A stretch of DNA of 64,000 nt from an uncultured Thiotrichales bacterium (GTDB lineage Bacteria; Pseudomonadota; Gammaproteobacteria; CAIRSR01). The notes under the pieces are model-generated. The model did no database searches, was not told the DNA's origin, and saw nothing but the letters and a program-made list of their open reading frames with translations. A program made the position numbers and the translations under genes. Location of the stretch: the NCBI GenBank assembly GCA_903881315.1, contig CAIRSR010000113.1, positions 4,693 to 68,692 of the forward strand, given 5' to 3'. Positions 1,944 to 39,821 of the stretch are shown here, piece after piece (position 1 is the first letter of the stretch; every line of letters starts with the position of its first letter).

Positions 1944-2110
1944 TGGGATAATGATACGGTTTCTCGACCAGGATCCCTCTCCTCGGAGAGGTTCCTGCGA
2001 GAAATCGTATTATGGGTAGGGAGCATTCTGCCCTAACGGGTGGGTGCGGGATGGTGGAAGAGGGGCGTGATGAATGGACGACAACCTAAATTTGCTGTGT
2101 GTGGCAGTGT

Positions 2111-4509: not shown

Positions 4510-4840
4510 TACCAAGGTTGTTTGGCGATTTAGGATTGGCCTGACAGTGAGAGTTTCAGTCCGGTACTGTGGGTTTACTCACGGATGTCGAGATCGTTTG
4601 AGTACCGTTGTGGGAGAACTTTGCAAATTAAATTTTGTAATGCCATTGTGGCGACTTTTGGGTGCTGTAATCGGCGCGTTGGCCGGAAGAAAGGCGTTAG
4701 GGTTTGGTAAACACCAGTGTTCTCATTGGTGGTTCGCATACAGTACCCTCGGCCTTTTCCAATTAGCAGAACCCCATGGGTGAGCGGTGGCTAACGTAAC
4801 ATCCCGAGAACTTTCACCCTTTTACTCACAGGAGAGGGAA

Positions 4841-16568: not shown

Positions 16569-16577
16569 TCTAGTGAC

Positions 16578-22181: not shown

Positions 22182-22232
22182 TTTGGTGAATTGCAGTCGT
22201 CGCGTCGCTCTCTGAATGGTTGGAGGTTGGCT

Positions 22233-24305: not shown

Positions 24306-27300
24306 ATGACGCAGAAACCGGAACTTTCTCCGACCAAACGGGCGTTGCTGGCGCTACAAGAAATGCAGGCAAAGGTGGCGCGGTTGGAGAGCCAGCAGCG
24401 CGAACCGATCGCTGTGGTGGCGATGGCGTGCCGTTTTCCTGGGGGTGCCAATACCCCGGAGGCGTTTTGGCAGATGCTCTGCGAGGCGCGTGATGCGATC
24501 ACCGAGATACCCCCCGAGCGTTGGGACGTGGAGGCCTACTATGACAAAGACCCCAATGTCCCAGGCAAGATGTACACCCGCTTTGGTAGTTTCTTAAGCG
24601 CGATTGATGCGTTTGACCCGATCTTTTTTGGCATTACCCCGCGTGAGGCGCACTCCATCGACCCCCAGCACCGCTTGTTGCTACCGGTGACCTGGGAGGC
24701 GCTAGAGAATGGTGGTTTTGATGTCAACGCCTTGTACGGTAGTCGCACCGGCGTCTATGTCGGGATTAGTAATTTCGAGTATGGCGCGGCCCTCTGGTCG
24801 GATAGCCCGGAGCGGATCAGCGCCTATTCTGGCACCGGTGGTTCGCTCGGGGTGGCTGCGGGTCGTTTGTCCTATACGTTTGGGTTCACCGGCCCGAGCA
24901 TGATCATCGATACCGCCTGTTCCTCGTCGCTCGTCACCACCCACCTCGCGATGCAGGCATTGCGGCTTGGGGAGTGTGATCTCGCGATCAGTGCTGGCGT
25001 CAATCTCATCTACGGCCCAGAGACCCATATCAATTTCTGTAAGGCGCGGATGCTGGCTGCCGATGGCCACTGCAAGACCTTCTCTGCCGCCGCCGATGGC
25101 TACGCCCGAGGGGAAGGGGTCGGGGTCTTGGTGTTGAAGCGTCTAAGCGACGCTAAACGCGATGGCGATACGGTGCTTGCCTTATTGCGGGGTTCGGCAG
25201 TCAATCAGGATGGGCCGAGTGGCGGCCTTACCGTGCCGAACGGGCCGTCGCAGGTCAAGGTGATCCGCGCTGCCCTGGCGAGTGGCGAGATTCACCCTGA
25301 TCAAGTGGGCTACCTAGAGGCCCACGGTACGGGTACAGCACTCGGCGATCCGATCGAGATGGGGGCGCTTGCGACTGTCTTTGGGTTGCGCAAGACGCCG
25401 CTCCGTGTTGCCTCGGTGAAGACCAATGTGGGGCATTTGGAGTCGGCGGCGGGTATCGCGGGGTTGATCAAGGCCGTCCTTTCGGTGCAACACGGGGCGA
25501 TTGCGCCGCATCGCAATTTCGAGCAACCAAGCCCGCATATCGACTGGGCGTCAATCTCGGTTGCAATCCCTACGGCCCTCACCGAGTGGCCAGATCCGGT
25601 GCGGATTGTCGGGGTTAGCTCCTTTAGTTTTAGTGGCACCAATGCCCATGTGGTGGTGTCGAATGATGTTCCCGTGGGCGCGACCGTTGAAGCGCTTACA
25701 CACGAGCCGTCCCCGCTGGTTGCGCCAACGACCTGGCCCGCAACGCGCCTGCTCGCGTTGTCGGCGAAGAGTAGTGCTGGGCTACAGGCGTTGGCTGCGC
25801 GGGTCGCAGATGACCTGGAGCGTCGCCCGAGCAACGCCTGGCATGGCTACTGTGTCGCGGCTGCCCGTGGGCGCGGTCACTATAGCCATCGTCTCACGTT
25901 ACTCGCCGACACCCCAGCGGCTGCCGCCACACGGTTGCGAGTGGGTGAGGCGCAGACCAGTCGCCGTCCGGTGAATCCGCCGCGCATCGCCTTTCTGTTT
26001 ACTGGACAGGGTGCGCAGTATCTCCAGATGGGGCGAGAACTCTATGAACAAGAGCCTTATTTTCGGTCGATTTTAGAACAATGCGAGGCCATCGCGAGTC
26101 CGCTGATTGGGCGTTCGTTGCTCGGGCTGTTGTATCCCGCGCCCGAGGCGGCGACACCCGAGGCGGAGGCCCTACTGGCCGCGACCGAGTATACCCAGCC
26201 TTTGCTGTTCGCAATCGAATATGGGTTGGCACAGTTGTGGCGGCATTGGGGTATCGAGCCGGAGGCGCTGATTGGTCATAGTGTCGGCGAGTTGGTGGCG
26301 GCGACGGTTGCGGGTCTCTGGACGCTAGAAACCGGGTTGACCTTAACCTGTGCGCGGGGTCGTCTGCTCGCAGCCTTGTGTTCGCCGGGTGCGATGGCCT
26401 CTGTCCCGTTAAGCTCGGCGGCGGTCAGTGCCCGTTTGGCGACCTATCGCGAGCGGGCGAGCGGGGTGGTGCTTGCGAGCATCAACGGCCCTGAGAGTGT
26501 CGCGGTCGCGGGAAGTGCCGCTTCTCTCAACGCGCTCATTGCGGCGCTTGCCGCCGAGGGGATTGAGGCTAAGCCATTACGGGTCTCCCACGCCTTTCAT
26601 TCGCCGCTCGTTGAGCCCATGATCGCGGCGTTTCGGGCGGAACTTGGCTCGGTGAGGTTTGCGACCCCAACCATCCCGATTCTCTCTAACCTCAATGGTG
26701 AGTTTGCTGACCCGCAGGTGCTTGCTACTCCCGCTTACTGGTGCCGACATCTCCGTGAACCGGTGCGTTTTGCCGATGGGTTGGCGCGACTGTTGGCGGA
26801 GGGTTTCGATACCTTTATTGAAGTAGGCCCAAAGCCAACCCTCTGTGCCTTTGGGATGGCGCAAGCGGAGGCTCTTGGGATGACGGCGAGCTGGTTGCCG
26901 AGCTTGCGCTATCGCGTCGAACCCTGGCGGCAGTTGTTGCTTAGTCTTGGCGAACTCTATCGTCTTGGTCTGGATGTGGCCGCCTCGGCGCTGGCGCAGG
27001 GGGGGCCGCGCTATCCGCTCAGATTGCCGAATATGCCGTTCCAGACCGATCACTACTGGCTAGAGAAACCAGCAGAGCGGGTGCGCCTGCGTGGTGGTCA
27101 TCCGCTGCTGGGCGAGCGGCTTGAGACGCCGTTGCTTGCAGCGGGTGGGGTATTGTTTGTCAATGAACTCTCCGCCGAGAGTTTTCTTGCCCACCACCAG
27201 ATCTTTGGCCAGGTCGTGTTGCCTGCAGCGGGGCATATGGAGATGGCGTTGGCGGCGGCGGGGGCGTTGCTGCCGAACGGCGCGTGGCTCCGCGAGGTCA

Positions 27301-30300
27301 CTATCCAGCGGGCGCTCGTCCTGCCAGTCGCGGCTGCGCTGCCCGTGCAGATGGTGTTGCAAGCGAGCGCGGATGGCTACCGCTTTACCATCTATGCGCC
27401 GACCGAGGGCGTTCCCGGGGCTACTTGGCAGCCGTATTCCGCAGGCGAGTTGGTCGCGGGGGTCTTGCCGCTTCGCCCCATGATTACGCTGGATGAGATG
27501 CGAGCGCACTGTGATGAGGCGTTTCCGGTTAGCGAATACTATCGGCTGGCGCACTCGGTGGGGATTGCCCACAGCGCAGACTTCCAGGCGCTGACCGGTC
27601 TCTGGCGTGCGCCGGATGCGGTGCTGGCGAGGATTGAACTGCCGCCTGCGCTGGCGGGGGAGGCGGGCGCGTTTCGGTTGCATCCGGTGCTCTTGGATGC
27701 GGCCTTTCAGGCGGCGAGTGTGTTGCTGCTCGCGCGCGGTGTTACCTACCTGCCGGTCGGTCTTGCCGAGTTACAGACTACCCGCCCGTTGCCCAAACAG
27801 TTGTGGTGCTGGGTCACGGCGCAGGCGGGCGCGGAGGACGCACGGTTGTTTCTGGCTGACCTGCAATTGTTCGATGATGAGGGTGAGCAGATTGCTGAGG
27901 TGCGCGGGCTTTGCTTCCAGCAGGTTGATGTCCACGTCCTCACCGACGCCAGGCGGCGCTATGGGTCGTGGCTCTACCAGATTGCCTGGGAGACGCAACC
28001 GCTCTTTGGTGTGCAGCCACCGTGCTCACCGCCACAATTGGGTGTCGCGCTCGCCGAGGCAACGCGCGAACTGGTGCCGCAGTGCGCGTTTTATCAGCCG
28101 TTTTTGGCGGGTCTTGAGCAGTTGGCGGGCGGCTATATCCAACAAGCGCTACAGCAGTGTGGTTGGCAGCCAGCGCCGAACAGTGTCTTTACTACCCCTG
28201 CCTTGGCCAAACAACTCGGTGTGCAAGAGTCCTTTGCTGCGTTGTTTGAGCGCTGTCTCGCCATCCTCGCCGAGGACGGTGTTCTCCGCCGCGAGGCCGA
28301 CCAGTGGCGGGTAGTGACGCCCCTTGTGGCGTTGTCTCCTGCTGTGGTCGAGGCATTGCGTCTGCAGTATCCGGCGGCGCTGCCGGAGATTACGCTCTTG
28401 GAGCGTTGCGCGAGCGTTCTTGCTGGTGTGTGGCGTGGTGAGGTCAATCCACTGCATCTCTTGTTCCCAGAAGGTTCGCTTTCGGTCACGACGTTGCTCT
28501 ACCAGCATTCGGTGGGGGCGCGGATCATCAATGATCTGCTGGCGTCTGCGGTGCAACGAGCGGTTGCGGGTCTGCCGACAACCCAGGGCATTCGCATCCT
28601 AGAGATCGGCGGCGGCACCGGTGGCACCACGACGCGCTTGTTGCCACTGCTTCCGGTGGGGCGTAGCGATTATCTGTTTACTGACATCTCGACCTACTTT
28701 ACCAACCATGCCAAGCAGCAGTTTGGCGGCGAGTATGGCTTTGTCCGTTACGGATTGCTCGATATTGAGAAATCACCACCGGCGGAACTGTGCGGCCAGT
28801 TTGACCTTGTCGTTGCCGCGAATGTGGTACACGCCACCCGTGTGCTTGGCGAGACCCTGGCCCATTGCGCGGAACTGCTGGCCCCAGGCGGGATGTTGGT
28901 GCTCCTCGAGGCAGAGGCCCGCCAACGCTGGCTCGATCTCACTTTTGGCATGACCGACGGTTGGTGGCGCTTTATCGGTAGCGACCCGTTCCGCGCTGAT
29001 TATCCCCTCTTGACGACCGAGCAATGGCGTACATTACTGCCAACCTGTGGGTTTGATGGGGTGACGATACTCGGGCCCGATCAATACAGCGAAGCGGCAC
29101 AGTTACGCCAAAACATCGTTCTCGCACGACGCGCTCTGCGGGAGGTTGCTCTCCCGCCCCGTCTTGCGCTGGGTCGTTGGTTGATTGTTGGCGACAGTGG
29201 GCCCGGGGGGGTTGGCGCACTCTTGGCCGAGCGCTGTGTCGGACGCGCAACGCTGGTTGCCCGTGACGCTTTTCTTAGCAACAGTGCCGCATTGTTGGCA
29301 GAACCGCTCGCGGGGGTTGTGTTGGTGTATGCCCTCGAAGAAGACACGCCCCTCGAAGCGCCCCAAGCACTGCTTCATGCACAAGAGCGTATCAGTACGC
29401 CGTTGTTGCGGTTGTTGCAGGGTTTGGGGAATGAGCGGACGTGCGCATTGTGGGTGGTCACCCGTGCGGCGATAGCCGTACCGTCCGATCCGTCTTGCGA
29501 GGCTTCCGACTTGGCGCGTGACGCACAAGGTCTGGTGCAGACCGTGCTGCATGGCCTGATGCGCAGTGCCGTTGTCGAATATCCGCAATTACAAACGGTG
29601 GTTCTCGACCTCCCCGCCGCTGAAAGCAAGGCCGCGAGCGCCGAGCGCGTCTGGCGCGAGTTTGCCGCAGCGCAACAACCCGAGGAGGTGGTGGTGCTGC
29701 GCGATGCGGGTCGGTTCGTGCGTCGGCTGCAACGCGATGACGCCCAACCCGTCGCGAAACGCTTGAGTCTTAGCGCCGAGGCTTCTTATCTCATTACGGG
29801 TGGTCTTGGTGACCTTGGGCTGCTCGTGGCGCACTACCTAGTAGAGCAGGGGGCACGCTACCTGGTCTTGCTCGGGCGGAATGGGCCGCGTGAGAGTGCG
29901 AAGGCAAGTCTCGCGGCACTCGAAGCGGCTGGGGCTGTGGTCGAGATTGCAACGCTTGATATTACCGATGACCTCGCGCTTCAGGCCTTGCTCGCATTGC
30001 CTCGGCCACCCCTGCGTGGGGTTGTCCATGCGGTTGGTGCGCTTAGCAACGGCGCTTTGGCGACAATGGACTGGCCGAGGCTTGCGTCCGTCTTGAGCGC
30101 CAAGGTGTTGGGTGGCTGGAACTTACACCAGGCAACCGAGACGTTGCCGCTTGATTTCTTTATCCTATTTTCTTCGATCAGCTCAGTATTCTGGTCGGAG
30201 GCGCAAGGCAACTATGCTGCCGCCAATGCCTTTCTTGATGAGCTGGCGGGATTCCGAGAGCAACGACAACTGCCCGCACTCGTGATCAACTGGGGCGCTT

Positions 30301-30965
30301 GGTCGGAGATTGGTCTTGCGGCCCGCACCGGCGCGTTGGCCCACGCGACGGGGCAGGGTGTCGCGGCGATTCGGCCAGACGACGGCATCGCCCTTTTCGA
30401 CCTGCTCTGGCAGCGGCAAGGGCAGGTGATAGTAACGTCGGTGGACTGGCCGAACCTGCTCCGGCAACTACCAAAGCCAATGCCGTTGGTAGAGCACTTT
30501 AGGGACAAGCAGGCAGCGGCGGTTGTTGCGGCAATGGGAGGTAGCGCTTGGCTTACGCAGTTGCGTACACTGCCAACGAACGAACAGCGTGCGGTATTGC
30601 TCGATCGCGTGCGCGAAGAGGTTGCGCGGGTGATTGGTGGTAGCGCCTCCCAGCTCGACGATCAGACCGGGTTTTTCGATCTAGGGGTTGATTCTCTGAC
30701 CGCAGTAGAGTTACGCAATGCCTTGCAGGCGGCTTTACCAGTAAACTTACCGGCAACGCTGTTGTTTAAGTATCCGAACATTGCTGCGCTGGCTGCCTTC
30801 TTGGCGACCGAACTGCTAAGTGAGGGGTCGCCTCCGGTGGCTCCTCCCCAAGTTGCTGTTGCTTCCGCAGCGCCGACGACTGCCGCGCTTGAGGTTGGCA
30901 GCATGTCGGAGGCGGAGCTAGAGGCCTTGATCAATGATGAATTCGCTAATCTCAACGAGTATTGA
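24306..30965 (+). CDS. Type I PKS, module 3: KS-AT-DH-cMT-KR-ACP
   Basis: Docking-like LLALQEMQAKVARLE. KS: DTACSSSL (24909), HGTGT, NVGH. AT: GQGAQYLQMG, GHSVGE (26274), SHAFHS. DH: HQIFGQVVLPAAGH (27193), LLDAAFQ. C-methyltransferase SAM motif ILEIGGGTGGTT (28596). KR: TGGLGDLG (29793), no LDD. ACP: LGVDSLT (30680). Confidence 0.95.
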   Translation: MTQKPELSPTKRALLALQEMQAKVARLESQQREPIAVVAMACRFPGGANTPEAFWQMLCEARDAITEIPPERWDVEAYYDKDPNVPGKMYTRFGSFLSAIDAFDPIFFGITPREAHSIDPQHRLLLPVTWEALENGGFDVNALYGSRTGVYVGISNFEYGAALWSDSPERISAYSGTGGSLGVAAGRLSYTFGFTGPSMIIDTACSSSLVTTHLAMQALRLGECDLAISAGVNLIYGPETHINFCKARMLAADGHCKTFSAAADGYARGEGVGVLVLKRLSDAKRDGDTVLALLRGSAVNQDGPSGGLTVPNGPSQVKVIRAALASGEIHPDQVGYLEAHGTGTALGDPIEMGALATVFGLRKTPLRVASVKTNVGHLESAAGIAGLIKAVLSVQHGAIAPHRNFEQPSPHIDWASISVAIPTALTEWPDPVRIVGVSSFSFSGTNAHVVVSNDVPVGATVEALTHEPSPLVAPTTWPATRLLALSAKSSAGLQALAARVADDLERRPSNAWHGYCVAAARGRGHYSHRLTLLADTPAAAATRLRVGEAQTSRRPVNPPRIAFLFTGQGAQYLQMGRELYEQEPYFRSILEQCEAIASPLIGRSLLGLLYPAPEAATPEAEALLAATEYTQPLLFAIEYGLAQLWRHWGIEPEALIGHSVGELVAATVAGLWTLETGLTLTCARGRLLAALCSPGAMASVPLSSAAVSARLATYRERASGVVLASINGPESVAVAGSAASLNALIAALAAEGIEAKPLRVSHAFHSPLVEPMIAAFRAELGSVRFATPTIPILSNLNGEFADPQVLATPAYWCRHLREPVRFADGLARLLAEGFDTFIEVGPKPTLCAFGMAQAEALGMTASWLPSLRYRVEPWRQLLLSLGELYRLGLDVAASALAQGGPRYPLRLPNMPFQTDHYWLEKPAERVRLRGGHPLLGERLETPLLAAGGVLFVNELSAESFLAHHQIFGQVVLPAAGHMEMALAAAGALLPNGAWLREVTIQRALVLPVAAALPVQMVLQASADGYRFTIYAPTEGVPGATWQPYSAGELVAGVLPLRPMITLDEMRAHCDEAFPVSEYYRLAHSVGIAHSADFQALTGLWRAPDAVLARIELPPALAGEAGAFRLHPVLLDAAFQAASVLLLARGVTYLPVGLAELQTTRPLPKQLWCWVTAQAGAEDARLFLADLQLFDDEGEQIAEVRGLCFQQVDVHVLTDARRRYGSWLYQIAWETQPLFGVQPPCSPPQLGVALAEATRELVPQCAFYQPFLAGLEQLAGGYIQQALQQCGWQPAPNSVFTTPALAKQLGVQESFAALFERCLAILAEDGVLRREADQWRVVTPLVALSPAVVEALRLQYPAALPEITLLERCASVLAGVWRGEVNPLHLLFPEGSLSVTTLLYQHSVGARIINDLLASAVQRAVAGLPTTQGIRILEIGGGTGGTTTRLLPLLPVGRSDYLFTDISTYFTNHAKQQFGGEYGFVRYGLLDIEKSPPAELCGQFDLVVAANVVHATRVLGETLAHCAELLAPGGMLVLLEAEARQRWLDLTFGMTDGWWRFIGSDPFRADYPLLTTEQWRTLLPTCGFDGVTILGPDQYSEAAQLRQNIVLARRALREVALPPRLALGRWLIVGDSGPGGVGALLAERCVGRATLVARDAFLSNSAALLAEPLAGVVLVYALEEDTPLEAPQALLHAQERISTPLLRLLQGLGNERTCALWVVTRAAIAVPSDPSCEASDLARDAQGLVQTVLHGLMRSAVVEYPQLQTVVLDLPAAESKAASAERVWREFAAAQQPEEVVVLRDAGRFVRRLQRDDAQPVAKRLSLSAEASYLITGGLGDLGLLVAHYLVEQGARYLVLLGRNGPRESAKASLAALEAAGAVVEIATLDITDDLALQALLALPRPPLRGVVHAVGALSNGALATMDWPRLASVLSAKVLGGWNLHQATETLPLDFFILFSSISSVFWSEAQGNYAAANAFLDELAGFREQRQLPALVINWGAWSEIGLAARTGALAHATGQGVAAIRPDDGIALFDLLWQRQGQVIVTSVDWPNLLRQLPKPMPLVEHFRDKQAAAVVAAMGGSAWLTQLRTLPTNEQRAVLLDRVREEVARVIGGSASQLDDQTGFFDLGVDSLTAVELRNALQAALPVNLPATLLFKYPNIAALAAFLATELLSEGSPPVAPPQVAVASAAPTTAALEVGSMSEAELEALINDEFANLNEY
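28390..29085 (+). other. C-methyltransferase domain inside PKS3 (approximate bounds)
   Basis: Class I SAM fold: ILEIGGGTGGTT, DYLFTDIS, FDLVVAANVVHAT, LLAPGGMLVLLE. Located between DH and KR. Confidence 0.8.
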
Positions 30966-33900
30966 GCGTGACTGTAGCCAGTAGCCGTGGTGTTGCAACA
31001 CCGGATGACATGAGCCCCCTCCAGCGGGCGGCGCTAACGATTCGCGAGCTAAAGAGTAAGCTTGAGGACAGTCGCCAATCCCAGTTTGAGCCGATAGCCG
31101 TTGTCGGCATGGATTGTCGTTTTCCCGGGGCGTCTTCGCTTGATGAGTTTTGGGCGTTACTGCGCGATGGGGTGGATGCGGTGCGTGAGGTGCCGCTGGA
31201 TCGTTGGGATCTGTCGGAGTGGTTTGACGCAAACCCGAACGCTGCCGGTAAGATCAATACCCGTCATGGCGCTTTTATCGAGGATGTCGCGGGTTTTGAT
31301 GCTGCGTTCTTTGGCATCCCGCCCCGTGAGGCTATGCAGATGGATCCTGGCCAACGCCTGTTGTTGCAGATCACCTGGAGCGCACTCGAGCGGGCGATGA
31401 TCCCGCCGGAGTCGTTGCGCGGCAGTCGTAGCGGTTTTTTTGTCGGCATGAGCCAGAATGATTATGGCTCCCTCCAGATCAATGGCGACCCGAGTGCAAT
31501 TACCGCCTACAGTGGTACCGGGAATGGCTGGTGTTTTGCGTGTGGGCGCATTGCCTTTCAGTATGGTTTCAACGGCCCGGCCCTGACCACCGATACGGCC
31601 TGTTCTTCGTCGCTGGTGGCCATGCACCAGGCGGTCAATGCCCTGCGTATGCGCGAGTGTGATGTAGCCATGGCGGCGGGTGTGCAGCTCAACCTAACGC
31701 CGCCGATGCAGGTGTTTTTCGCCCGTACCCAATCCTTTTCGCCAGACGGTCGCTGCTTTACCTTTGATGCACGGGCGAACGGTCTGGTGCTCGGGGAAGG
31801 CGTGGCGGTGGTGGTGTTGCGACGCTTGAGCGATGCGTTACGCGATGGGCAGCCTGTCCTGGCGGTGATTCGCTCGACCAGCCTCAACCATGATGGTGCC
31901 TCGGGTGGGCTGACCGTGCCGAATGAGAGCGCCCAAGAGGCGCTGATCCGTGACGCATTGCAACGTGCGCGGGTCGCCCCAGACAGTATCGATTATATCG
32001 AGACCCACGGCACTGCCACCCCGCTTGGCGATCCTATCGAGGTCGGCGCATTACGCGCCGTGTTTGGCAAGCGCCCCGCGAGTCAGCCGCTTACCATCGG
32101 CTCGGTCAAGACCAACATCGGTCATCTGAACGCCTCGGCGGCGATTGCGGGTTTTATCAAGACCGTGTTAATGCTGCAACACCAGCAGATGGTTCCGCAT
32201 CTGCACTACCGCGAACCGAATCCCAAGATACCCTGGCAGGGTTTTGCGGTACAAGTGCCGACTGCGTTGCAACCTTGGCCGGCACCGCCGTTAGGTCAGC
32301 CGCGCCGTGCGGGTCTCAGTTCCTTTGGTTTGAGCGGCACCAATGGTCATCTCGTGTTAGAGGAATGGCCGATAGCGGTTGCAACCCCGCAAACCGAGCC
32401 CCCAGTGGTGGAGCGCCCACTGCACCTGTTCGCCCTTTCGGCGCGGAGTGAAGTGGCGCTACGGGCGTTGGCCGCGAGTCATCGGCAACGGCTTAGTGCA
32501 GATCAGGGGCTATCGTTGGCTGACTATTGTTATAGCGCCAATGCCGGTAGGAGCCATCTTGGTTGGCGCGCCATTGTGTGTTGTGCCACCATTCTTGAGT
32601 TGCAGGAGGCCCTGGGTGCGCTGGCTGTGGGTAGCGAGCATCCGTGTTTGCGTGGCCCACAGCGAAACCGTGGCGCAGCGCCTAAGGTGTTGATGACGCT
32701 CGCGCACGACCCTGCACCGTGGCTGATAACGCATCCGGTCTCTCGCAAATGGCTTGCCCACTATGCTCGTGTGAGCGGATTGCTGCTTGATACAGCAGTG
32801 CTTGACGCCAACCGCACACCCGCCACAGAACTTGCAGGCTACCTGGTGCTCGCCGCGCTGTGGCAGGCGTGGGGGGTACAACCAACCGCCGTGCAGGGGG
32901 TTGGCGGTGGTCGCTATGCGGCGGCGGTGCTCGCTGGTGCGCTTACTGCCGAGGAGGCCTTTGCGGCTCTTCTGCAAGGTCGAGCGCCCGTCCTCGCGGC
33001 CCCACAGCGCACCCTGCTGGAGGGGGATGGCAGTCGCCTGGTGTCCCTCCAAGGGGGGGGGCAGCCTTTGGCGGCGCTAGCGGGCTACGATGTGCGGTTG
33101 TCTCTCGGCAGAGAGGACGCGCCGGAAGAGGGCTCTTCTTTGCCCTGGACGAGTGTGCTCGAGGAGCTGGTGGCCTTCTATCTGGAGGGAGGCGCGGTTG
33201 ACTGGCGTGGTTTCGATGCGGGTTACGGGCGGCATTGGTTGGTTCTGCCTACCTATCCCTTTGCCCGCGACCGTTACTGGCGCGACAATCAGGTTGTAGC
33301 TCCGCCGACAAAGGTGGTGGCAGCGCCTGTGGTGGCAATGGAGCGAGACAACCCGCCCGCTCTGGCGGCGGAGCCGGAAAAGGGCGCACCGTCTGTTGCA
33401 CCGGAGGGTGAGCCACCGGTGTCGGTAGCGCCAGTGGTGTCAGCGCCGACGGAACCGGTATCGGCCCGAGCGTCGTTAGTCCCCGAACCAACAACTGCAG
33501 TGGTTTCGTCCTCGTGGTCGTTGGCGCAATTGATGGAGCGCCAGTTGCAACTGGTCGCTGAGGCCATCAGTAGTGTGACGCTGCAGCAATTGACGGCGCT
33601 GCAGGTCATTACTGCGGCAGGGGCTAAGGTGGCGGCGGTTGGGCCCGCTTGCGACGCTCCTTCCCAGGTGCCACCTCTTGCGCCCAATCCGCTAATTGCA
33701 GAGGGGACGCAGGGGCAGTCCCTCCCCGAGGGGGAGTCTTTCACCGAACAATCAGAGAAAGAGAGACCTTCTCAACCGGAAGAAACGAGTGGGGGAGCAG
33801 CGCACGGGACGGGTGAGTGCCACATGACAACGGATGGTTGTGGTGGCGCTGCTGAAGACCCTCCGGTTTCTCCAGTAATCCCTGTGGCCAGCGTAATCGA

Positions 33901-35245
33901 TCCGCTGCGTTGTGGTGATTGGCGCTTGTTGCTCTGCCACGCTGCCGACCCGGATGCGCTCTTGGCCGAGCGGCAGTTGCTTGCGGCGCAAATTATCGAT
34001 GCCCCCGATGCGGTGCTGGCCGCGAGTCGCAAGGCCTTGCAGCAGCCCCCTGCCGTTGGTCGGCGATTGATGCTGAGTTATCAGGATGTTCAAGAGGCCG
34101 CCCTGGCGCTCGGCACCCAAGGCAGTAAGCGAGTAATCAGCGCCGCTAGTCATGAACAGGCACCAGCGGTTGTCTTTATGTTTCCAGGCGTGGGGGATCA
34201 CTACCTCAATATGGGGCAGGGTCTGTATCGGGCAGAGCCGTTATTCCGCGCGATCGTTGATCATTGTTGTGACTATCTGTTGCCGGTAATCCATGTTGAT
34301 CTGCGCACGGTGCTCTATCCGCTGGAACCAGTGAATACAAATCCTGAGGCCGCAGCACCGAAATTCGATCTGCGTGCTATGTTGGGGCGTGGGTCTTCTC
34401 CACCCAATCCGCAATTAGAGCGCCTGAATCAGACGCTGCATAGTCAACCGCTGTTGTTTATTATCGAATATGCGTTGGCGCGGTTGTGGTTGGCGCGGGG
34501 TGTGCAGCCGCTTGCGATGATTGGTTACAGCATTGGCGAATACACTGCGGCGGTTTTAAGTGATGTGATGGCGCTGGATGATGCCCTGCGACTGATTGCC
34601 CGTCGCGCCGAGCTGATTGAGGGGGTTGCCCCGGGCGCAATGTTGGCGATACCGTTGGGTCTAGATGCCTTGCAATCACGACTTGGTGGGGGGCTTTCTT
34701 TGGCGATTAGCAGTACGCCGAATCAGTCGGTGGTTGCCGGGCCCGTTCTGGCTATTGAGGCATTGCAAGAGCAGCTCAAGGCGCAAGAGGTGGTGTGTCG
34801 AAGGCTGCAAAGCAGTCACGCATTCCATTCGACCATGCTACAACCCTTGCACCAGCCATTGCGGAAACTCGTGAGTGAGTTTCGTTTGCAAGCGCCGCGC
34901 ATCCCCTATATTTCTAATGTGACGGGGGATTGGATTCGAGATGCCGAGGCGACCGACCCCGACTATTGGGCACGTCATACCTGGCAGACGGTGCGTTTTG
35001 CCGATGGCCTAGGGCGGCTGCTGGCGCCGGACGCATTTGCTGGCGCGAGTAATCGGCTATTTCTAGAGGTGGGCCCGGGGGTAAGCCTTGGTAGTTTCAT
35101 GCTGCAGCACCCGGCGTCGGCGCAATTGGCGCGGAAAGTGAGTCTGCCAACACTTCGCACGATGTATGAGCGAACCCCCGACGAGCAATTCTTGCTAAAC
35201 ACCCTGGGTAAACTCTATCTGGCTGGTGTCCAATTATCTCTGTAA
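30962..35245 (+). CDS. Type I PKS, terminal protein: KS - degenerate AT-like region - about 290-aa low-complexity linker - intact AT; no ACP, no release domain
   Basis: The start (TTG 30962 or GTG 30968) overlaps the PKS3 stop codon. Docking-like LTIRELKSKLEDS. KS: DTACSSSL (31592), HGTAT, NIGH. See the domain sub-features below. Confidence 0.9.
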   Translation: MSVTVASSRGVATPDDMSPLQRAALTIRELKSKLEDSRQSQFEPIAVVGMDCRFPGASSLDEFWALLRDGVDAVREVPLDRWDLSEWFDANPNAAGKINTRHGAFIEDVAGFDAAFFGIPPREAMQMDPGQRLLLQITWSALERAMIPPESLRGSRSGFFVGMSQNDYGSLQINGDPSAITAYSGTGNGWCFACGRIAFQYGFNGPALTTDTACSSSLVAMHQAVNALRMRECDVAMAAGVQLNLTPPMQVFFARTQSFSPDGRCFTFDARANGLVLGEGVAVVVLRRLSDALRDGQPVLAVIRSTSLNHDGASGGLTVPNESAQEALIRDALQRARVAPDSIDYIETHGTATPLGDPIEVGALRAVFGKRPASQPLTIGSVKTNIGHLNASAAIAGFIKTVLMLQHQQMVPHLHYREPNPKIPWQGFAVQVPTALQPWPAPPLGQPRRAGLSSFGLSGTNGHLVLEEWPIAVATPQTEPPVVERPLHLFALSARSEVALRALAASHRQRLSADQGLSLADYCYSANAGRSHLGWRAIVCCATILELQEALGALAVGSEHPCLRGPQRNRGAAPKVLMTLAHDPAPWLITHPVSRKWLAHYARVSGLLLDTAVLDANRTPATELAGYLVLAALWQAWGVQPTAVQGVGGGRYAAAVLAGALTAEEAFAALLQGRAPVLAAPQRTLLEGDGSRLVSLQGGGQPLAALAGYDVRLSLGREDAPEEGSSLPWTSVLEELVAFYLEGGAVDWRGFDAGYGRHWLVLPTYPFARDRYWRDNQVVAPPTKVVAAPVVAMERDNPPALAAEPEKGAPSVAPEGEPPVSVAPVVSAPTEPVSARASLVPEPTTAVVSSSWSLAQLMERQLQLVAEAISSVTLQQLTALQVITAAGAKVAAVGPACDAPSQVPPLAPNPLIAEGTQGQSLPEGESFTEQSEKERPSQPEETSGGAAHGTGECHMTTDGCGGAAEDPPVSPVIPVASVIDPLRCGDWRLLLCHAADPDALLAERQLLAAQIIDAPDAVLAASRKALQQPPAVGRRLMLSYQDVQEAALALGTQGSKRVISAASHEQAPAVVFMFPGVGDHYLNMGQGLYRAEPLFRAIVDHCCDYLLPVIHVDLRTVLYPLEPVNTNPEAAAPKFDLRAMLGRGSSPPNPQLERLNQTLHSQPLLFIIEYALARLWLARGVQPLAMIGYSIGEYTAAVLSDVMALDDALRLIARRAELIEGVAPGAMLAIPLGLDALQSRLGGGLSLAISSTPNQSVVAGPVLAIEALQEQLKAQEVVCRRLQSSHAFHSTMLQPLHQPLRKLVSEFRLQAPRIPYISNVTGDWIRDAEATDPDYWARHTWQTVRFADGLGRLLAPDAFAGASNRLFLEVGPGVSLGSFMLQHPASAQLARKVSLPTLRTMYERTPDEQFLLNTLGKLYLAGVQLSL
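32414..33286 (+). other. Degenerate (catalytically dead) AT-like / KS-AT linker region of PKS4
   Basis: GQGxQ is replaced by KVLMTLAHDPAPW. The GHSxG nucleophile is replaced by GVGGGRY (32897-32917). The region is shorter than the ATs of modules 1-3, but the post-AT motif YPFARDRYW is kept. Confidence 0.7.
34157..35245 (+). other. Intact C-terminal acyltransferase domain of PKS4 with variant nucleophile elbow
   Basis: VVFMFPGVGDHYLNMG, GYSIGE (34523-34540) instead of GHSxGE, SSHAFHS, EVGPG. It lies at the extreme C-terminus with no carrier domain after it. Confidence 0.8.
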
Positions 35246-35265: not shown

Positions 35266-36123
35266 ATGAATAATAACACCGTGGGTGTTGTTGGTGCTGG
35301 GGTTATGGGTAGTGGTGTTGCGCAGAATCTGGCGCAGAGCGGTTTTACTGTCGTACTGATCGATATTAATGAGAAGGTATTGCAACGTACCGAGGCAGAG
35401 ATTCGTAAGAATGTTCGCTTCTCGGCGTTTTATGCAAAGGATAAAACGAAGGTTGAATCAGTGGAGACGGTCTTAGGTCGCATCGAGTTTACGACGGATT
35501 ACAGTAAACTCGCGACTGCCTATTTTATTGTTGAGAATGCCTCGGAGATATGGGAGGTAAAGCAGGCGGTCTATCCGTTGATTGATAAATATGCGCCGCC
35601 CGAGGCGCGCGTTGCTGCTGATACCTCGTGTTTTTCGATTACTCGTTTGGCCTCATTGACCGCACGGCCCGACAAGATCATCGGTATGCACTTTATGAAT
35701 CCGGTGCCAATGAAGACCACCGTCGAGGTGATCAAGGGGTATCACACCAGTCCTGAGACCATTACGATTGGTCTTGATTTTCTGGCGCGGATGGGTAAGG
35801 ACGGGATTGTTGTTAATGATGCTCCGGGTTTTGTTTCTAATCGGGTGCTGATGCTTACGGTGAATGAGGCAGTCTTTGTGGTTCATGATGGGGTTGCGAC
35901 GGCGGCCCAGGTCGATGAAATACACCGCAAATGTTTTGGGCATAAAATGGGGCCCCTAGAGACAGCCGACCTGATCGGCCTAGATACGATCCTTTATTCA
36001 GTGGAAGTGCTTTGGGAGAGTTATAATGATAGCAAATATCGTCCGTGTCCATTGCTAAAGAAAATGGTTGCCGCCGGTTTACTGGGGCGTAAGAGTGGCG
36101 AAGGTTTCTACAAATACAAGTGA
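35266..36123 (+). CDS. 3-hydroxyacyl-CoA/ACP dehydrogenase (FkbK/ZmaG-like)
   Basis: GGGAG RBS. Rossmann motif VGVVGAGVMGSGVAQNLA. HFMNPVP, DAPGFVSNRV, GPLETADLIGLD. Confidence 0.85.
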   Translation: MNNNTVGVVGAGVMGSGVAQNLAQSGFTVVLIDINEKVLQRTEAEIRKNVRFSAFYAKDKTKVESVETVLGRIEFTTDYSKLATAYFIVENASEIWEVKQAVYPLIDKYAPPEARVAADTSCFSITRLASLTARPDKIIGMHFMNPVPMKTTVEVIKGYHTSPETITIGLDFLARMGKDGIVVNDAPGFVSNRVLMLTVNEAVFVVHDGVATAAQVDEIHRKCFGHKMGPLETADLIGLDTILYSVEVLWESYNDSKYRPCPLLKKMVAAGLLGRKSGEGFYKYK

Positions 36124-36134
36124 AAGAGTGAAAC

Positions 36135-36368
36135 ATGAGTACAATTGAAGACGCGGTGCGGAGTTTTCTCGGGCAGTTCGTCAGTGATCCGGATGTCGAG
36201 GGCGATCACGATCTGTTTAGTTCCGGCATGGTAAATTCTCTGTTTGCCATGCAGTTGGTGCTATTCGTTGAGAAGCAATATGGTATCACGGTGGCAAACG
36301 AGGATCTTGATTACGAGAATTTTAAATCAGTGAATGCCATTGTCGGTTTTATCCAGTCAAAGCAGTAA
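36135..36368 (+). CDS. Discrete acyl carrier protein (FkbJ/ZmaD-like)
   Basis: 77 aa and acidic. Helix II motif SSGMVNSLFAMQLVLFVE (Ser in NSL as the putative phosphopantetheine site). Sits between the two dehydrogenase genes. Confidence 0.75.
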   Translation: MSTIEDAVRSFLGQFVSDPDVEGDHDLFSSGMVNSLFAMQLVLFVEKQYGITVANEDLDYENFKSVNAIVGFIQSKQ

Positions 36369-36381
36369 TGGGAGTAGCGTG

Positions 36382-37569
36382 ATGGACTTTGATCTAACCA
36401 CCGAGCAGTCTCGTGCCAAGAGTGAATTTCGCCAGTGGGTGGAACAATGCGTGGTGCCGGTAGCTGATGCCAATGACAATCGTGAACAAACCCCACCGGA
36501 GTTGATTGCCGAGATTGCGGCAAACGGTTATCTCGGTGCATTGGTTGCAAAGGAATACGGTGGGAGGGGCATGGATGCGTTGACTTGGGGGCTTTTGTGC
36601 GAAGAGGTGGGGCGCGGTAGTGCCTCGTTGCTGAGTTTGCTTACTGTGCATGGCATGGTCATCCAATCCCTAGCGAAATGGGGCACACTTGCGCAGCGTG
36701 AGCGGTGGTTACCAAAATTGGCAACGGGTGCCACGGTTGGTGCGTTTGGGCTTACCGAGCCGAATATTGGCAGTGACGCGAAGAATATTGAGAGCACGGC
36801 AGTGTTACAAGCGGATGGAACCTATCTGCTGAATGCCGAGAAACGCTGGATATCCTTTGGCGCATCGGCTGACCTGGTGCTCGTCATTGCCAAGGTTGGC
36901 GATAAGGCGACTGCCTTTTTGGTAGAACGCGGTATGCCAGGGTTTTCGATAGAGCCAATTCGTGGGATGCTTGGTTTTCGTTCGGCAAATATTGCGCGCC
37001 TTTTGATGCGTGATGTGATTATTCCTGCTCAGAATATCGTCGGGAAGGTTGGTTTTGGTTTCTCACATATTGCTGGGACTGCGCTTGATCATGGTCGCTA
37101 CTGTGTCGGTTGGGGCTGTGTTGGGCTTGCCCAGGCGGCATTGGATGCAGCGCTCTCTTATTCCGGCGAGCGCTATCAGTTTGAAGTGACATTAAATAAA
37201 CACCAACTGATCCAAGAGATGTTGGCCGAGATGATCGTCAACGTCAAAGCGGCGCGGATGCTGAATTACCATGCGGCCTTCCTCAAGGATCGAGGCGATC
37301 CGTCATTGATTATGGAAACATCAATGGCAAAATATTTTGCGTCGCGGGTTGCCAGTCAGGCTGCAAATGCTGCCGTGCAGATCCATGGTGCCAATGGTTG
37401 TTCTAGCGATTATCCGGTGCAGCGTTATTTTCGTGACGCCAAGATTATGGAGATCATCGAGGGCAGCAACCAGATGCAGCAGATCATCATTGCCAAATCA
37501 GGTTATCAACAACATTTGGTGAACAAACGGGCAGCACGGCGCTCAGCGGCAGAAGGGGAGGGGCGGTGA
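36382..37569 (+). CDS. Acyl-CoA/ACP dehydrogenase family flavoprotein (FkbI/ZmaE-like)
   Basis: GGGAG lies before ATG 36382. FGLTEPNIGSDA, RWISFG, QIHGANGCSSDYPVQRYFRDAKIMEIIEGSNQMQ. The ORF track's earlier start overlaps the ACP gene and was not used. Confidence 0.85.
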   Translation: MDFDLTTEQSRAKSEFRQWVEQCVVPVADANDNREQTPPELIAEIAANGYLGALVAKEYGGRGMDALTWGLLCEEVGRGSASLLSLLTVHGMVIQSLAKWGTLAQRERWLPKLATGATVGAFGLTEPNIGSDAKNIESTAVLQADGTYLLNAEKRWISFGASADLVLVIAKVGDKATAFLVERGMPGFSIEPIRGMLGFRSANIARLLMRDVIIPAQNIVGKVGFGFSHIAGTALDHGRYCVGWGCVGLAQAALDAALSYSGERYQFEVTLNKHQLIQEMLAEMIVNVKAARMLNYHAAFLKDRGDPSLIMETSMAKYFASRVASQAANAAVQIHGANGCSSDYPVQRYFRDAKIMEIIEGSNQMQQIIIAKSGYQQHLVNKRAARRSAAEGEGR

Positions 37570-38621
37570 TGGCTGGGAAGCAGAAGGAAAAGGATCATAA
37601 AGTAAAATGCCTGGTCTGGGATCTCGATAACACCCTATGGCGCGGCACACTGCTAGAAGACAAAGAGGTAATGCTGATCCCCGAGGCGGTTGAGTTAATC
37701 AAGACGCTGGATGATCGCGGTATTCTGCAATCCATTGCGAGCAAGAATGATCATCCGCTGGCGGAAAAGAAACTGCGCGAACTCGGATTATTCGATTACT
37801 TTCTCTATCCGCAGATCAACTGGGATGCCAAGTCGCAGTCTATCCAGAAGATTGCAACGCTCATTAATATTGGTATTGATACCCTAGCGTTTATTGACGA
37901 TCAAGCGTTTGAGCGCGAGGAAGTGAGCTTTAGTCATCCGCAGGTACTTACCATTGATGCGGCTCTCGTGGCGCAAGTGGCCGAGTTAGCGGTAATGCGT
38001 CCGCAGTTTATCACCGAGGATTCGCGGCGGCGGCGGGAGATGTACCAGAGCGACCTGAGGCGGAAAGAGGTCGAGGAGGGTTTTAGTGGCCCGCAGGATG
38101 CGTTCCTAGAAACGCTGGGTATGGTGCTGACGATTAGCCAGGCCAAGCAGGACGACTTGAAAAGGGCGGAGGAACTAACCCAGCGTACCAATCAGCTCAA
38201 CACTACTGCATATACCTACGATTATGATGAACTCGCAGTCTTTAGTACGTCTTCCGATTATCTGCTATTGGTTGCGGGGCTCGATGACAAATATGGGACG
38301 TACGGTAAGATTGGCCTAGTTCTGGTCGAGAAGCGTGGGCAAACCTGGTTGATTAAGCTGCTGCTCATGTCTTGCCGGGTAATGTCGCGCGGTGTTGGGA
38401 CGGTGATGATTAACTATTTGCGGAACATGGCGCGTGCTGCTGGGGTGGCATTAGAGGCCGAGTTTGTTCAGAATGACAGAAATCGCATGATGTATATGAC
38501 GTATAAGTTTAATCATTTCCGTGAGAAGGAAAAGCGCGATAATTGGATCTTGCTTGAGAATGATCTAAGCAGGGTACAGGTGTATCCTCCTTATATGAAA
38601 CTGATAACCGATGAGATGTAA
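37569..38621 (+). CDS. FkbH-like HAD-superfamily phosphatase/glyceryl-ACP loading enzyme
   Basis: The start overlaps the upstream stop codon (GTGATG). HAD motif I VWDLDNTLW, SKN, FIDDQ. C-terminal LLLMSCRVMSRGVG is Cys-containing and resembles the FkbH/OzmB catalytic region as I recall it. About 350 aa. Confidence 0.8.
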   Translation: MAGKQKEKDHKVKCLVWDLDNTLWRGTLLEDKEVMLIPEAVELIKTLDDRGILQSIASKNDHPLAEKKLRELGLFDYFLYPQINWDAKSQSIQKIATLINIGIDTLAFIDDQAFEREEVSFSHPQVLTIDAALVAQVAELAVMRPQFITEDSRRRREMYQSDLRRKEVEEGFSGPQDAFLETLGMVLTISQAKQDDLKRAEELTQRTNQLNTTAYTYDYDELAVFSTSSDYLLLVAGLDDKYGTYGKIGLVLVEKRGQTWLIKLLLMSCRVMSRGVGTVMINYLRNMARAAGVALEAEFVQNDRNRMMYMTYKFNHFREKEKRDNWILLENDLSRVQVYPPYMKLITDEM

Positions 38622-38645: not shown

Positions 38646-39821
38646 ATGACGCAAGCAGTGGAATTTTTCGATAGCACAGCGGTTGATCAGGGAAGCCAAG
38701 GATTCTCTGGTGCAGTTAGTGATGGGCGCTATCTGTATTTTGTGCCGATGGCAAATGGGCCGGGTCGGTTTTCTGGTCAGGTGACCCGTTATGACAGTCA
38801 TGGCGACTTTCAGGATCCGACCAGTTGGACGGTGTTCGATACTGCGGTTGTTAATTCGGCGAGTCGCGGTTTTGCGAATGGTCTGTTTGATGGTCGCTAT
38901 CTGTATATGATTCCGTATCACAATGATCAGCACCATGGTCAGGTCACTCGTTACGATACCCGAGGGGAATTTGATAGTCCCGCCTCGTGGGATTTCTTTG
39001 ATGTACAGATCCTCATTGACACTGGACGTGGTTTTGTGAGTGGTTGTTTCGACGGTCGTTATCTGTATCTTACGCCGTATCAAATTTCATGGACGCTGTA
39101 TAACGGTACGATGGTTCGTTACGACACAACCAGAGACTTTGCTGATAGAGATAGCTGGGAGGTGTTTGACAGCACATCGCTATCAAGCATGAGTTGTGGT
39201 TTTCATTCGGCAGTGGATACTCGGGATTTTATCTATTTTGTGCCATTTGTCCGTGCGCAGCGTGATTATCATGGGCTATTGGTGCGTTTTCGGCGTAGTG
39301 GTGGCTTTGCTGATCCAAATAGTTGGGAGATGGTTGACATCAAGGGATTCAACCCGCGTGGCTGCGGTTTCATTGGTGGCTGTTTTGATAGCCAATACCT
39401 ATATCTCGCTCCCTATTTTGATGGAAAGGGTCGATTTGGGCAGGTGGCTCGCTATGACAATTTGCAGCCACTTAACGAGGATGCTAGCTGGCAATTCTTT
39501 GACACTGAATTGGTGCACAGCGAAAGTCGTGGATTCTTTGGGACGTTACTTCACAACGAGTTTATTTATTTTATCCCGCACTGTAAGGCGGAAGGAATAT
39601 ATAACGGTCAGATCACTCGTTACGATCGAAGAGAGTCTTTTATGAGTCCATCTGCCTGGTCTGTGTTGGATACTGCCGCTTATCACCCGATGAGTAAGGG
39701 CTATATTGGGGGAGCGGTGATAAATAATTATCTTTATATGGCACCCTACGAAACAGCGCCAGCAGCGCATAGTGGATTAATTGCAAGGATTGATTTGGCT
39801 GTGCGTACCGTTTGGAAATGA
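38646..39821 (+). CDS. Seven-repeat (beta-propeller-like) protein of unknown function
   Basis: Seven tandem units of about 55 aa with consensus SW..FD......GF.G..FDGRYLY..PY......G.V.RYD....F: DGRYLYFVP, DGRYLYMIPY, DGRYLYLTPY, RDFIYFVPF, DSQYLYLAPY, NEFIYFIPH, NNYLYMAPY. No signal peptide and no catalytic motif that I recognise. Confidence 0.7.
   Translation: MTQAVEFFDSTAVDQGSQGFSGAVSDGRYLYFVPMANGPGRFSGQVTRYDSHGDFQDPTSWTVFDTAVVNSASRGFANGLFDGRYLYMIPYHNDQHHGQVTRYDTRGEFDSPASWDFFDVQILIDTGRGFVSGCFDGRYLYLTPYQISWTLYNGTMVRYDTTRDFADRDSWEVFDSTSLSSMSCGFHSAVDTRDFIYFVPFVRAQRDYHGLLVRFRRSGGFADPNSWEMVDIKGFNPRGCGFIGGCFDSQYLYLAPYFDGKGRFGQVARYDNLQPLNEDASWQFFDTELVHSESRGFFGTLLHNEFIYFIPHCKAEGIYNGQITRYDRRESFMSPSAWSVLDTAAYHPMSKGYIGGAVINNYLYMAPYETAPAAHSGLIARIDLAVRTVWK

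Follow-up and report, generated by a model that had tools for sequence, protein, structure and literature searches.

The stretch of DNA considered here, referred to throughout as the window, comprises 64,000 nucleotides from an uncultured Thiotrichales bacterium (GenBank assembly GCA_903881315.1, contig CAIRSR010000113.1, forward-strand positions 4,693 to 68,692). It carries, in order, the tail of a polyketide synthase (PKS) gene designated PKS5, genes for a DUF697 protein, an ABC transporter and a thioesterase, some unrelated-looking genes, a PKS gene that opens with a FAAL domain, a second PKS gene, an AsmA-family gene, a third PKS gene, the open reading frame (ORF) that is the subject of this study, an FkbH-type gene cassette, a gene for a protein of 391 amino acids (aa) and a glycogen phosphorylase gene. 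The ORF in question (30962..35245; it lies on the plus strand, as do all features whose coordinates are joined by two dots) has 1427 codons counted from a TTG, with a probable ATG start at 31010 (MSPLQ), and at its start it overlaps with the stop of the PKS gene before it, a KS-AT-DH-cMT-KR-ACP module (24306..30965). It encodes a ketosynthase (KS), a pseudo-acyltransferase (AT0), a linker and a second acyltransferase (AT2), without an acyl carrier protein (ACP) or any other carrier domain, and we therefore call it KS-AT0-AT2. We propose that it is probably one half of a split elongation module.

The KS occupies aa 43-416 (31088..32209; PF00109 289 bits, PF02801 139 bits). Its catalytic residues Cys214, His349 and His388 are intact in the motifs DTACSSS (211-217), HGTAT (349-353) and NIGH (385-388), and to judge from these residues the domain is catalytically complete; an earlier note on this DNA had already claimed the Cys/His/His set, which the motif positions and the Pfam KS matches bear out. 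There follow a KS-AT linker subdomain, LD1 (aa 419-555, 32216..32626; PF16197 and PF22621; pLDDT 80-96), and AT0, a folded AT remnant (aa ~556-761, 32627..33244) delimited by a 32-bit AT-profile match at 608-721, by family comparison and by a pLDDT of ~90. A post-AT linker (33245..33286), placed by the position of the motif YPFARDRYW at aa 765-773, ends this part of the protein; its W and Y/F are invariant in an alignment of 42 family members. That alignment was also the input to an AlphaFold2 model that covers aa 470-1427 with a mean pLDDT of 80, and in which LD1 and the AT remnant (aa 479-765) score ~80-97 and the C-terminal portion (aa ~979-1427) 93-98. The only strong Pfam AT match of the whole ORF falls at aa 1071-1357, within AT2.

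No PP-binding domain is matched by Pfam in the ORF at E<=1, unfiltered phmmer searches with six kinds of carrier query detect no carrier in it at E<1, and the linker in the AlphaFold model holds one long helix and no four-helix bundle; a hidden linker ACP was rejected on these three negative results. PF00550 is likewise absent from the precomputed Pfam lists of the short (<=1500-aa) family proteins examined. The carrier-less architecture described in the earlier note is thus upheld, and we judge the note correct in holding that condensation by the KS needs a carrier in trans. When the protein is set beside a cis-AT elongation module, it has no ACP in the same polypeptide and no active AT directly after the KS-AT linker, the active AT being the second, tethered one.

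KS-AT0-AT2 is a recurring architecture across several phyla and not a one-off. A search of 5.8 billion proteins returned P0001, identical to the window protein, from 4 contigs that belong to independent assemblies, and about 65 of the best 120 matches have the same composition, with a length of 1180-1500 aa, KS and AT families and no carrier family. Named sources are Gammaproteobacteria, Magnetococcales, Sulfuricellaceae, Balneolaceae, Desulfobacterales, Algibacillus agarilyticus and Thalassomonas sp., to which genome scanning added Propionivibrio and Parabeggiatoa/Thiotrichaceae. The segments of these proteins have not diverged equally from the window protein: BLAST identities are 51-86% for the KS and 50-81% for AT2 (78-81% in the closest relatives), and AT0 is 24-67% identical or undetectable. 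The motif GYS[IVLM]GE of AT2 is found in 65 of 65 family proteins, and FMFPG[VI]GDHY and HAFH in nearly all.

Decay of AT0 can be followed across the family. In the window protein GVGGGRY (646-652) stands at the GHSxG site, and neither GQG nor the small subdomain that bears the catalytic His survives; the earlier note had reported an AT remnant deprived of GQG and nucleophile but retaining YPFARDRYW, and this description is confirmed. All 11 members that were read have Gly for Ser at the nucleophile site, in the variants GNGVGE, GHGVGE, GQGVGE, GCGVGE and GAGVGE, besides GVGGGR in the window protein. The best-preserved copies keep AT-profile positions 1-125 and 204-304 and have lost 126-203, which form the catalytic-His small subdomain; most members, including the window protein, retain only positions of about 57-123, and in the shortest family proteins AT0 is undetectable by the AT profile. 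Because of this gradient, and because Gly occupies every AT0 nucleophile site read, AT0 is an old pseudo-domain and AT2 the part under constraint. By its sequence AT0 is catalytically dead yet predicted to fold, and its retention as a scaffold for the KS is a speculative explanation.

Between the two AT regions lie ~195 aa of predicted disorder (aa ~774-968) in which a conserved helix of ~30-40 aa is embedded. A first disordered stretch (aa 776-852, 33287..33517; pLDDT <50), rich in Pro, Ala, Ser and Val as judged on the composition of aa 796-853, leads to an amphipathic helix, SLAQLMERQLQLVAEAISSVTLQQLTALQVI... (aa ~853-892, 33518..33637; pLDDT 53-72), that is conserved in 42 of 42 aligned members, and a second disordered stretch follows (aa 893-968, 33638..33865; pLDDT <50). 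In the model the helix spans aa 854-892, and the flanking segments with pLDDT <50 span aa 766-852 and 891-963. The only conserved part of the tether is aa 853-883, ~30 aa (33518-33610) with the motif L..L...Q.....A...V..QQL.FL, in which Q861, Q876 and flanking Leu residues are invariant or nearly so across the 42 sequences. Of the 290 aa of low complexity that the earlier note assigned to the linker, therefore, ~195 aa stand as disorder, interrupted by the helix, and the remaining ~100 aa are the folded N-terminal subdomain of AT2 (pLDDT >90). A linker of low complexity is a place where sequencing or assembly error might join two genes, and G+C content falls across it, from 0.62-0.63 in the PKS genes and the KS-AT0-linker part of the ORF to 0.58 in AT2 and 0.45-0.52 in the cassette beyond. 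Yet the same frame runs on without a break in about 65 proteins whose source assemblies and isolates are unrelated, the identical protein occurs on 4 contigs, and the linker itself contains a conserved helix, so that we assign an artefactual origin of the architecture a next to negligible probability; recurrence in so many proteins rules out a fusion produced by frameshift or misassembly.

Directly downstream of AT2, at 35266-38621, is a complete FkbH-type gene set (FkbH/J/K/I; ZmaN/D/G/E). Its members are a 3-hydroxyacyl-CoA dehydrogenase family protein in the FkbK/ZmaG role (35266..36123; PF02737, PF00725), a free-standing ACP of 77 aa in the FkbJ/ZmaD role (36135..36368; PF00550 31.8 bits), whose position in the cassette is kept in about 40 loci, an acyl-CoA dehydrogenase family protein in the FkbI/ZmaE role (36334..37569; PF00441, PF02771, PF02770), which is annotated on the public contig with a start some 48 nt further on (395 aa), and a glyceryl-ACP-forming FkbH-family protein (37566..38621; TIGR01686 277.8 bits, cut-off 146.65). 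No FkbG-type O-methyltransferase is present in or beside the cassette, and the predicted product is therefore hydroxymalonyl-ACP and not methoxymalonyl-ACP. The 77-aa ACP, the only non-modular carrier in the window, is the probable donor of hydroxymalonate.

AT2 itself is intact. It consists of a KS-AT-linker-like subdomain, LD2 (aa ~969-1070, 33866..34171; defined by alignment with ZmaA-AT and SpnD-AT, pLDDT >90), and the acyltransferase proper (aa 1071-1427, 34172..35242; PF00698 143 bits), with the motifs FMFPGVGDHY (1072-1081), GYSIGE (1188-1193) and HAFH (1286-1289), just as the earlier note had it when it named a full AT with VGDHY, GYSIGE and HAFH. By sequence the nearest solved structures are the AT of SpnD (5YDA) and that of ZmaA (4QBU), the latter specific for hydroxymalonyl-ACP, both with E about 1e-60, and the crystallised N-terminal KS-AT linker of these two aligns with aa ~990-1070; a Foldseek search with the model returned 5YDA and 4QBU first (E~1e-35) and ClbI next. 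Ser1190, Arg1215 and His1289 are invariant across the 42 aligned family members, and Arg1215 indicates, by its conservation, a carboxylated substrate of the malonyl type.

Two ATs of zwittermicin biosynthesis provide a guide to extender choice. In ZmaA-AT and ZmaF, a Tyr replaces the His before the catalytic Ser and hydrophobic residues replace the RXR before YASH, the signature of ATs using ACP-bound extenders being MXW/MXM in the RXR region, five residues before YASH (PMC4207774). AT2 also has Tyr before Ser, and reads VCR(X)5HAFH, with a hydrophobic residue at the first RXR position and Arg still at the third. Loci were annotated with domain queries from the window, 79 of them in representative genomes and 55 in metagenomes. 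Among the genome-scan loci, 11 of the 29 with ATs that lack the GQG glutamine, as AT2 does, have a cassette no more than 10 kb away, as against 1 of the 36 with GQG ATs only (Fisher p = 3e-4). The Tyr of GYS was considered as a marker of cassette use and set aside, being a modest one (p = 0.005) with many cassette-linked ATs reading GHS; loss of the GQG glutamine is better. HAFH is present in 21 of 22 cassette-linked GYS ATs, mostly after [AV]CR; some of these ATs are proteins in their own right, and some are the only AT next to the cassette. Stand-alone or sole ATs of the AT2 clade lie directly beside cassettes in L013, L014, L134, L011, L020, L022 and L024 (L numbers denote loci and P numbers proteins). 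In a rough neighbour-joining tree of AT2-clade ATs, with ZmaA-AT as sole characterised reference, the AT2 domains of the family form one group, with an in-module AT of L009 nested inside, and this group lies within the non-GQG clade.

We infer from this context and clade, and not from membership of a ZmaA type, that the substrate of AT2 is hydroxymalonyl-ACP. Several observations pull the other way: ZmaA-AT falls outside the AT2 clade in the rough tree, HAFH is a classical malonyl signature, and the AT of PKS5 could use the cassette instead of, or alongside, AT2. AT2 might accordingly be an ordinary malonyl-CoA-specific enzyme that replaced the dead AT0, with the cassette serving the unusual AT of PKS5, whose GYSLGE and LPFH motifs are close to the GYSLG and GPFH of ZmaF, an enzyme that uses an ACP-bound extender (PMC4207774); about half of the GYS-type ATs, moreover, have no cassette within 10 kb. 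We consider this distinctly improbable. AT2 lacks the GQG glutamine and belongs to a clade enriched beside cassettes, the sole and stand-alone ATs of that clade sit next to cassettes with no other AT there to use them, and in the family the cassette most often directly follows AT2. Nor does HAFH argue for malonyl in this clade, because 21 of the 22 cassette-linked GYS ATs carry it, and the earlier expectation that HAFH predicts malonyl fails here. The AT of PKS5 might itself, going by its motifs, use an ACP-bound unit.

The earlier note also raised a different function for AT2, as an off-loading transacylase; the finished chain would then be handed over to an acceptor by AT2, and KS-AT0-AT2 would be the last protein of the line. 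An AT at the C-terminus of an ACP-less protein with no thioesterase domain in cis would suit that role. The idea is disfavoured, since the extender-carboxylate-binding Arg1215 is invariant, AT2 nests among extender-loading ATs, relatives have downstream subunits and a separate, free thioesterase gene is conserved in the cluster. We find it hardly credible.

Further AT2-like proteins came to light beside FkbH cassettes of cyanobacterial and metagenomic origin: stand-alone proteins of ~460-500 aa composed of an LD and an AT2-type AT (L013 9686-11074, L014 9686-11095, L134 6509-8020, L111 2956-4452), which are possible free-living relatives of the AT2 unit. A large protein at L099 (2-11038) contains several KSs without an AT directly after them and ends in an AT2-clade AT in which GLS replaces GHS or GYS.

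The carrier that KS-AT0-AT2 lacks has a candidate in related clusters. In 10 of the 18 annotated family loci (L005, L006, L007, L008, L087, L088, L091, L094, L096 and L097) the next synthetase gene encodes an ACP, about 160 aa of linker, a class-III aminotransferase (AMT) and the C, A and PCP domains of a nonribosomal peptide synthetase (NRPS), a domain order confirmed by Pfam for L005 and L006; no monooxygenase domain that might install a 2-hydroxyl was found in the partner proteins of these two loci. The cassette and the conserved 391-aa gene lie between KS-AT0-AT2 and the partner gene in seven of the ten. With a Magnetococcales contig (L144/L004) and the P0243 locus, the partner gene is known from 12 related clusters, and where the region is seen it is followed by a KS-AT-KR-ACP protein, whose orthologue in the window is PKS5 with its tail at 2-916. 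The Magnetococcales order is NRPS, a 395-aa gene, ACP-AMT-C-A-PCP, KS-AT-KR-ACP, FAAL-PKS, PKS, PKS, KS-AT0-AT2, cassette, DUF697, ABC and thioesterase. The description of KS-AT0-AT2 as terminal in the earlier note is thus probably wrong. The N-terminal ACPs of the partners score 45-79 bits against PKS-module ACPs and 27-39 bits against cassette ACPs, and by this measure look like the detached ACP of the KS-AT0-AT2 module; the idea that the partner ACP is a copy of the cassette ACP, raised by one phmmer match within the window, was abandoned when the wider comparison put it nearer the PKS-module ACPs. Elsewhere, modules divided into KS-AT and ACP-aminotransferase proteins occur without a second AT (L064 8273-16538, L047 1328-9725, L142 7444-12229), and the one in L064 (Argonema) has an FkbH cassette upstream; a module split between AT and ACP-aminotransferase is recurrent in its own right.

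The conserved linker helix connects the two proteins. We scanned every ORF in 141 loci and in the window with a profile of the helix (E<0.01). The profile matched every family protein, between AT0 and AT2, and 10 of 10 partner proteins, between the N-terminal ACP and the aminotransferase, and nothing outside these two groups. In L097 the two copies share an identical core of 22 residues, and across eight clusters cognate pairs, at an identity of 0.52, resemble each other more than non-cognate pairs do, at 0.43 (permutation p about 0.001). Since both subunits carry the helix, it may, speculatively, help the two halves to dock. Tempering that suggestion, weak, short versions of the motif (..QQLE.L) precede aminotransferase domains elsewhere, some of them in unsplit modules; because of these the helix seems native to the ACP-aminotransferase linker, from which it would have been copied into the KS-AT0-AT2 protein.

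We read the window protein, with a probability of roughly 0.62, as one half, KS and AT, of an elongation module divided between two proteins; the module would belong to a FAAL-primed assembly line of hybrid PKS-NRPS type that would operate as follows. FkbH, the 3-hydroxyacyl dehydrogenase and the acyl-CoA dehydrogenase homologue would build hydroxymalonyl on the 77-aa ACP (36135). AT2 would load hydroxymalonate from that ACP onto Ser1190 and pass it to the real ACP of the module, which is predicted to be the N-terminal domain of the next subunit, ACP-aminotransferase-C-A-PCP, as in related clusters. The module before it (24306-30965) would pass an alpha-methyl-enoyl chain from its ACP to the KS, which would condense this chain with the hydroxymalonyl-ACP, whereupon the aminotransferase would turn the 3-keto group into an amine, giving a 3-amino-2-hydroxy acyl unit. 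C-A-PCP would then add an amino acid, the KS-AT-KR-ACP protein (tail 2-916) would extend the chain, and the free thioesterase (3784-4509) would release it.

The genome at hand complicates this scheme. The public contig (L085) extends the window 4.8 kb upstream, where it contains the full 1531-aa PKS5 (L085 1142-5734), preceded by a 326-aa fragment without family match. Points to be set against the scheme are that no ACP-AMT-C-A-PCP gene or remnant occurs in the 64-kb window or the 4.8 kb upstream, that the positions known for the partner in relatives (directly before PKS5, and after the 391-aa gene) hold unrelated DNA here, and that the closest relative genome, GCA_963575715.1, has neither partner nor cassette beside either of the two loci seen. 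An aminotransferase or condensation domain, or remnant of one, is likewise absent from the window and the 4.8 kb; a tblastn search of the window and L085 with three partner proteins returned generic carrier and adenylation similarities only, and a database search with an ACP-AMT query gave no match traceable to the same samples, and the one candidate checked, P0123, came from another sample.

These absences invite another account, in which the 77-aa ACP does double duty, as the site of hydroxymalonate synthesis and as the acceptor for condensation by the KS; with KS-AT0-AT2 it would make up a complete module, and the partner would have been lost. The earlier note had named this ACP as the obvious partner, and it is the only non-modular carrier in the window; the lack of a partner gene or remnant here, and of the partner at the two loci seen in the nearest relative genome, speaks for it too. 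Against this, AT2 would be left without an acceptor, although its sequence is still 78-81% identical to those of the closest relatives with catalytic residues kept; the protein still has the linker helix with its match in the partner; and the PKS5 KS is most similar (55-60%) to PCP-preceded KSs, which supply 33 of its 39 best matches among 187 KSs, and is by this similarity of the kind fed by NRPS carrier domains. Furthermore, a close relative (PKS5 72% identical) keeps the partner gene at a second locus, in the order ACP-AMT-C-A-PCP, PKS5, DUF697, ABC, thioesterase and cassette. We think this account unlikely, and the ACP, being part of a complete FkbH cassette, was probably miscast as the obvious partner, although in this genome, where the partner gene is not in the window, the pairing is possible.

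Under the split-module reading, the partner gene presumably lies elsewhere in this genome, though it may have been lost. The pathway is scattered over several loci in this lineage, and such scattering is normal there, as the relative just described shows by keeping its partner gene at a second locus. That relative probably also encodes P0003 (67% identical), a link that is not established, and the KS-AT0-AT2 gene of P0003 occupies a locus of its own without a cassette. That the line continues past KS-AT0-AT2 is supported by the PKS5 orthologues too, one of which shares a contig with a KS-AT0-AT2 protein in four cases (P0317/P0041, P0351/P0059, P0328/P0038 and P0359/P0056); locus L088, where the partner gene is present, is from a contig equal in length to that of P0328 and P0038. 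The family qualifies as a beta-amino acyl-forming module, and for this genome the assignment is putative.

Two features offer a clue to the origin of the architecture: stand-alone LD-AT2 proteins lie directly beside cassettes (L013, L014, L134), and the cassette most often directly follows AT2. Together with the step in G+C they are consistent with a mobile unit of AT and cassette having been fused behind a KS-AT, the old AT decaying thereafter. G+C was rejected as proof of a chimeric origin, the step down at AT2 being gradual and not decisive, and the level of the cassette (0.45-0.52) is that of the flanking housekeeping genes. The full proposal of an AT swap by addition, in which a mobile hydroxymalonyl AT was fused, the old AT became a scaffold and the split module is held together by matching internal helices, one per subunit, that would form a docking element new to PKS/NRPS assembly lines, is put forward tentatively, as an idea that could well prove wrong.

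The remaining genes of the cluster fit around this core. The assembly line starts with FAAL-ACP-KS-AT-DH-KR-ACP and KS-AT-DH-KR-ACP proteins (9204..22181), and the window begins with the KR-ACP tail (2..916) of PKS5, a KS-AT-KR-ACP protein that starts upstream. Next come the DUF697 protein, the ABC transporter and the free-standing thioesterase (1386..4509), a trio conserved in related clusters and present in L004 and the P0243 locus, L143 having ABC and thioesterase without DUF697; an 81-aa ORF without match (1141-1386) precedes it. An adenylylsulfate (APS) kinase gene (4787-5407) lies between the thioesterase and the FAAL-PKS, and no sulfotransferase was found among the genes scanned. The AsmA-family gene, lipid-transport-like, occupies 22191-24203 between the second and third PKS genes, a layout repeated in L003, and its place in the PKS operon hints at a membrane or outer-membrane lipid product. 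Downstream of the cassette, the 391-aa protein (38646..39821) has no Pfam or NCBIfam match; it is made of about seven repeats of ~55 aa with the pattern GF..G..DGRYLYF.P...G.V.RYD...F....W..FD and is beta-propeller-like. Copies 40-49% identical are found in 8 related loci, beside FkbH or the ACP-aminotransferase gene. In L144 the corresponding place is taken by the 395-aa gene, compared by position and not by sequence, and its faint Kelch match suggests a beta-propeller. A protein of 2067 aa on the minus strand (55239-61442), almost entirely tetratricopeptide repeats, appears unrelated to the cluster.

The closest biosynthetic logic among described systems is that of puwainaphycin, in which PuwB (KS-AT-DH-cMT-ER-KR-ACP) is followed by PuwE (KS-AT-ACP-AmT-Ox-C-A-PCP) (PMC4219810). 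The same paper cites iturin MycA/ItuA as beta-amino fatty-acid-forming hybrid modules, and aminotransferase and monooxygenase modules have been reported for Athmu-type residues (PMC13252402). With PuwB and PuwE (PMC4219810) the family has in common a FAAL start, a C-methylating PKS, a minimal KS-AT and then ACP-aminotransferase-C-A-PCP; it departs from them in that the break in the module comes after the AT, and that the first AT is dead and has another joined on behind it. Relative to the PuwE and Athmu pathways, the partner proteins of L005 and L006 have no monooxygenase domain, and the 2-hydroxyl is predicted to come from the hydroxymalonyl extender. In contrast to PuwB/PuwE, the aminotransferase subunit was not found in this window.

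With ZmaA-AT (4QBU) and the FkbA ATs, enzymes that use hydroxymalonyl or methoxymalonyl units carried on an ACP, AT2 shares the AT fold, 4QBU being a joint-closest structure, and the Tyr before the catalytic Ser; the first residue of the RXR region is hydrophobic both in AT2 (VCR) and in ZmaA (MCM). The zwittermicin hydroxymalonyl pathway is also alike in its adjacent FkbH/ACP/dehydrogenase cassette without O-methyltransferase. Unlike ZmaA-AT, AT2 has HAFH and not GAAH, has GVGDHY and not GNGSQY, and is not grouped with it in the rough tree; it stands behind a dead AT and not directly after a KS, and its acceptor ACP would be on another protein.

The nearest known structural precedents are of two kinds. 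Tandem ATs occur in the mixed loading/first-extension modules of SorA, StiA and other myxobacterial PKSs, where both ATs are active and lie side by side, serving two ACPs in the same protein. Two ATs after one KS in a cis-AT PKS are common to these systems and to KS-AT0-AT2, but here the first AT is a fossil, the second is on a tether of ~195 aa and there is no ACP in cis. The KSs of trans-AT PKSs, for their part, keep a vestigial AT-docking "flanking subdomain", acyl transfer being performed by another AT. A non-catalytic KS-AT linker or AT remnant beside the KS is shared with these enzymes, whereas KS-AT0-AT2 has kept more of the AT core, still recognisable as such, and carries its working AT in the same polypeptide. 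In the literature searched, coverage of which is incomplete, we found no description of a dead AT plus second AT or of a module combining hydroxymalonyl and an aminotransferase; this negative is weak evidence of novelty, and the split KS-AT0-AT2 module may be an undescribed variant of a known machine.

No step in PKS engineering is attempted more often, or is more prone to fail, than the exchange of AT domains, and the family may be a natural template for it, with the old AT as scaffold at the KS, the new AT on a tether and the ACP on the next subunit. The 3-amino-2-hydroxy acyl unit is found in bestatin-, microginin- and puwainaphycin-type compounds; the described route to this pharmacophore is an aminotransferase-monooxygenase pair, and our reading predicts a route by way of a hydroxymalonyl extender. 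The candidate docking helix pair is directly testable, and experiments are feasible given that the cluster is carried by two cultured bacteria, Algibacillus agarilyticus and Thalassomonas sp. RHCl1.

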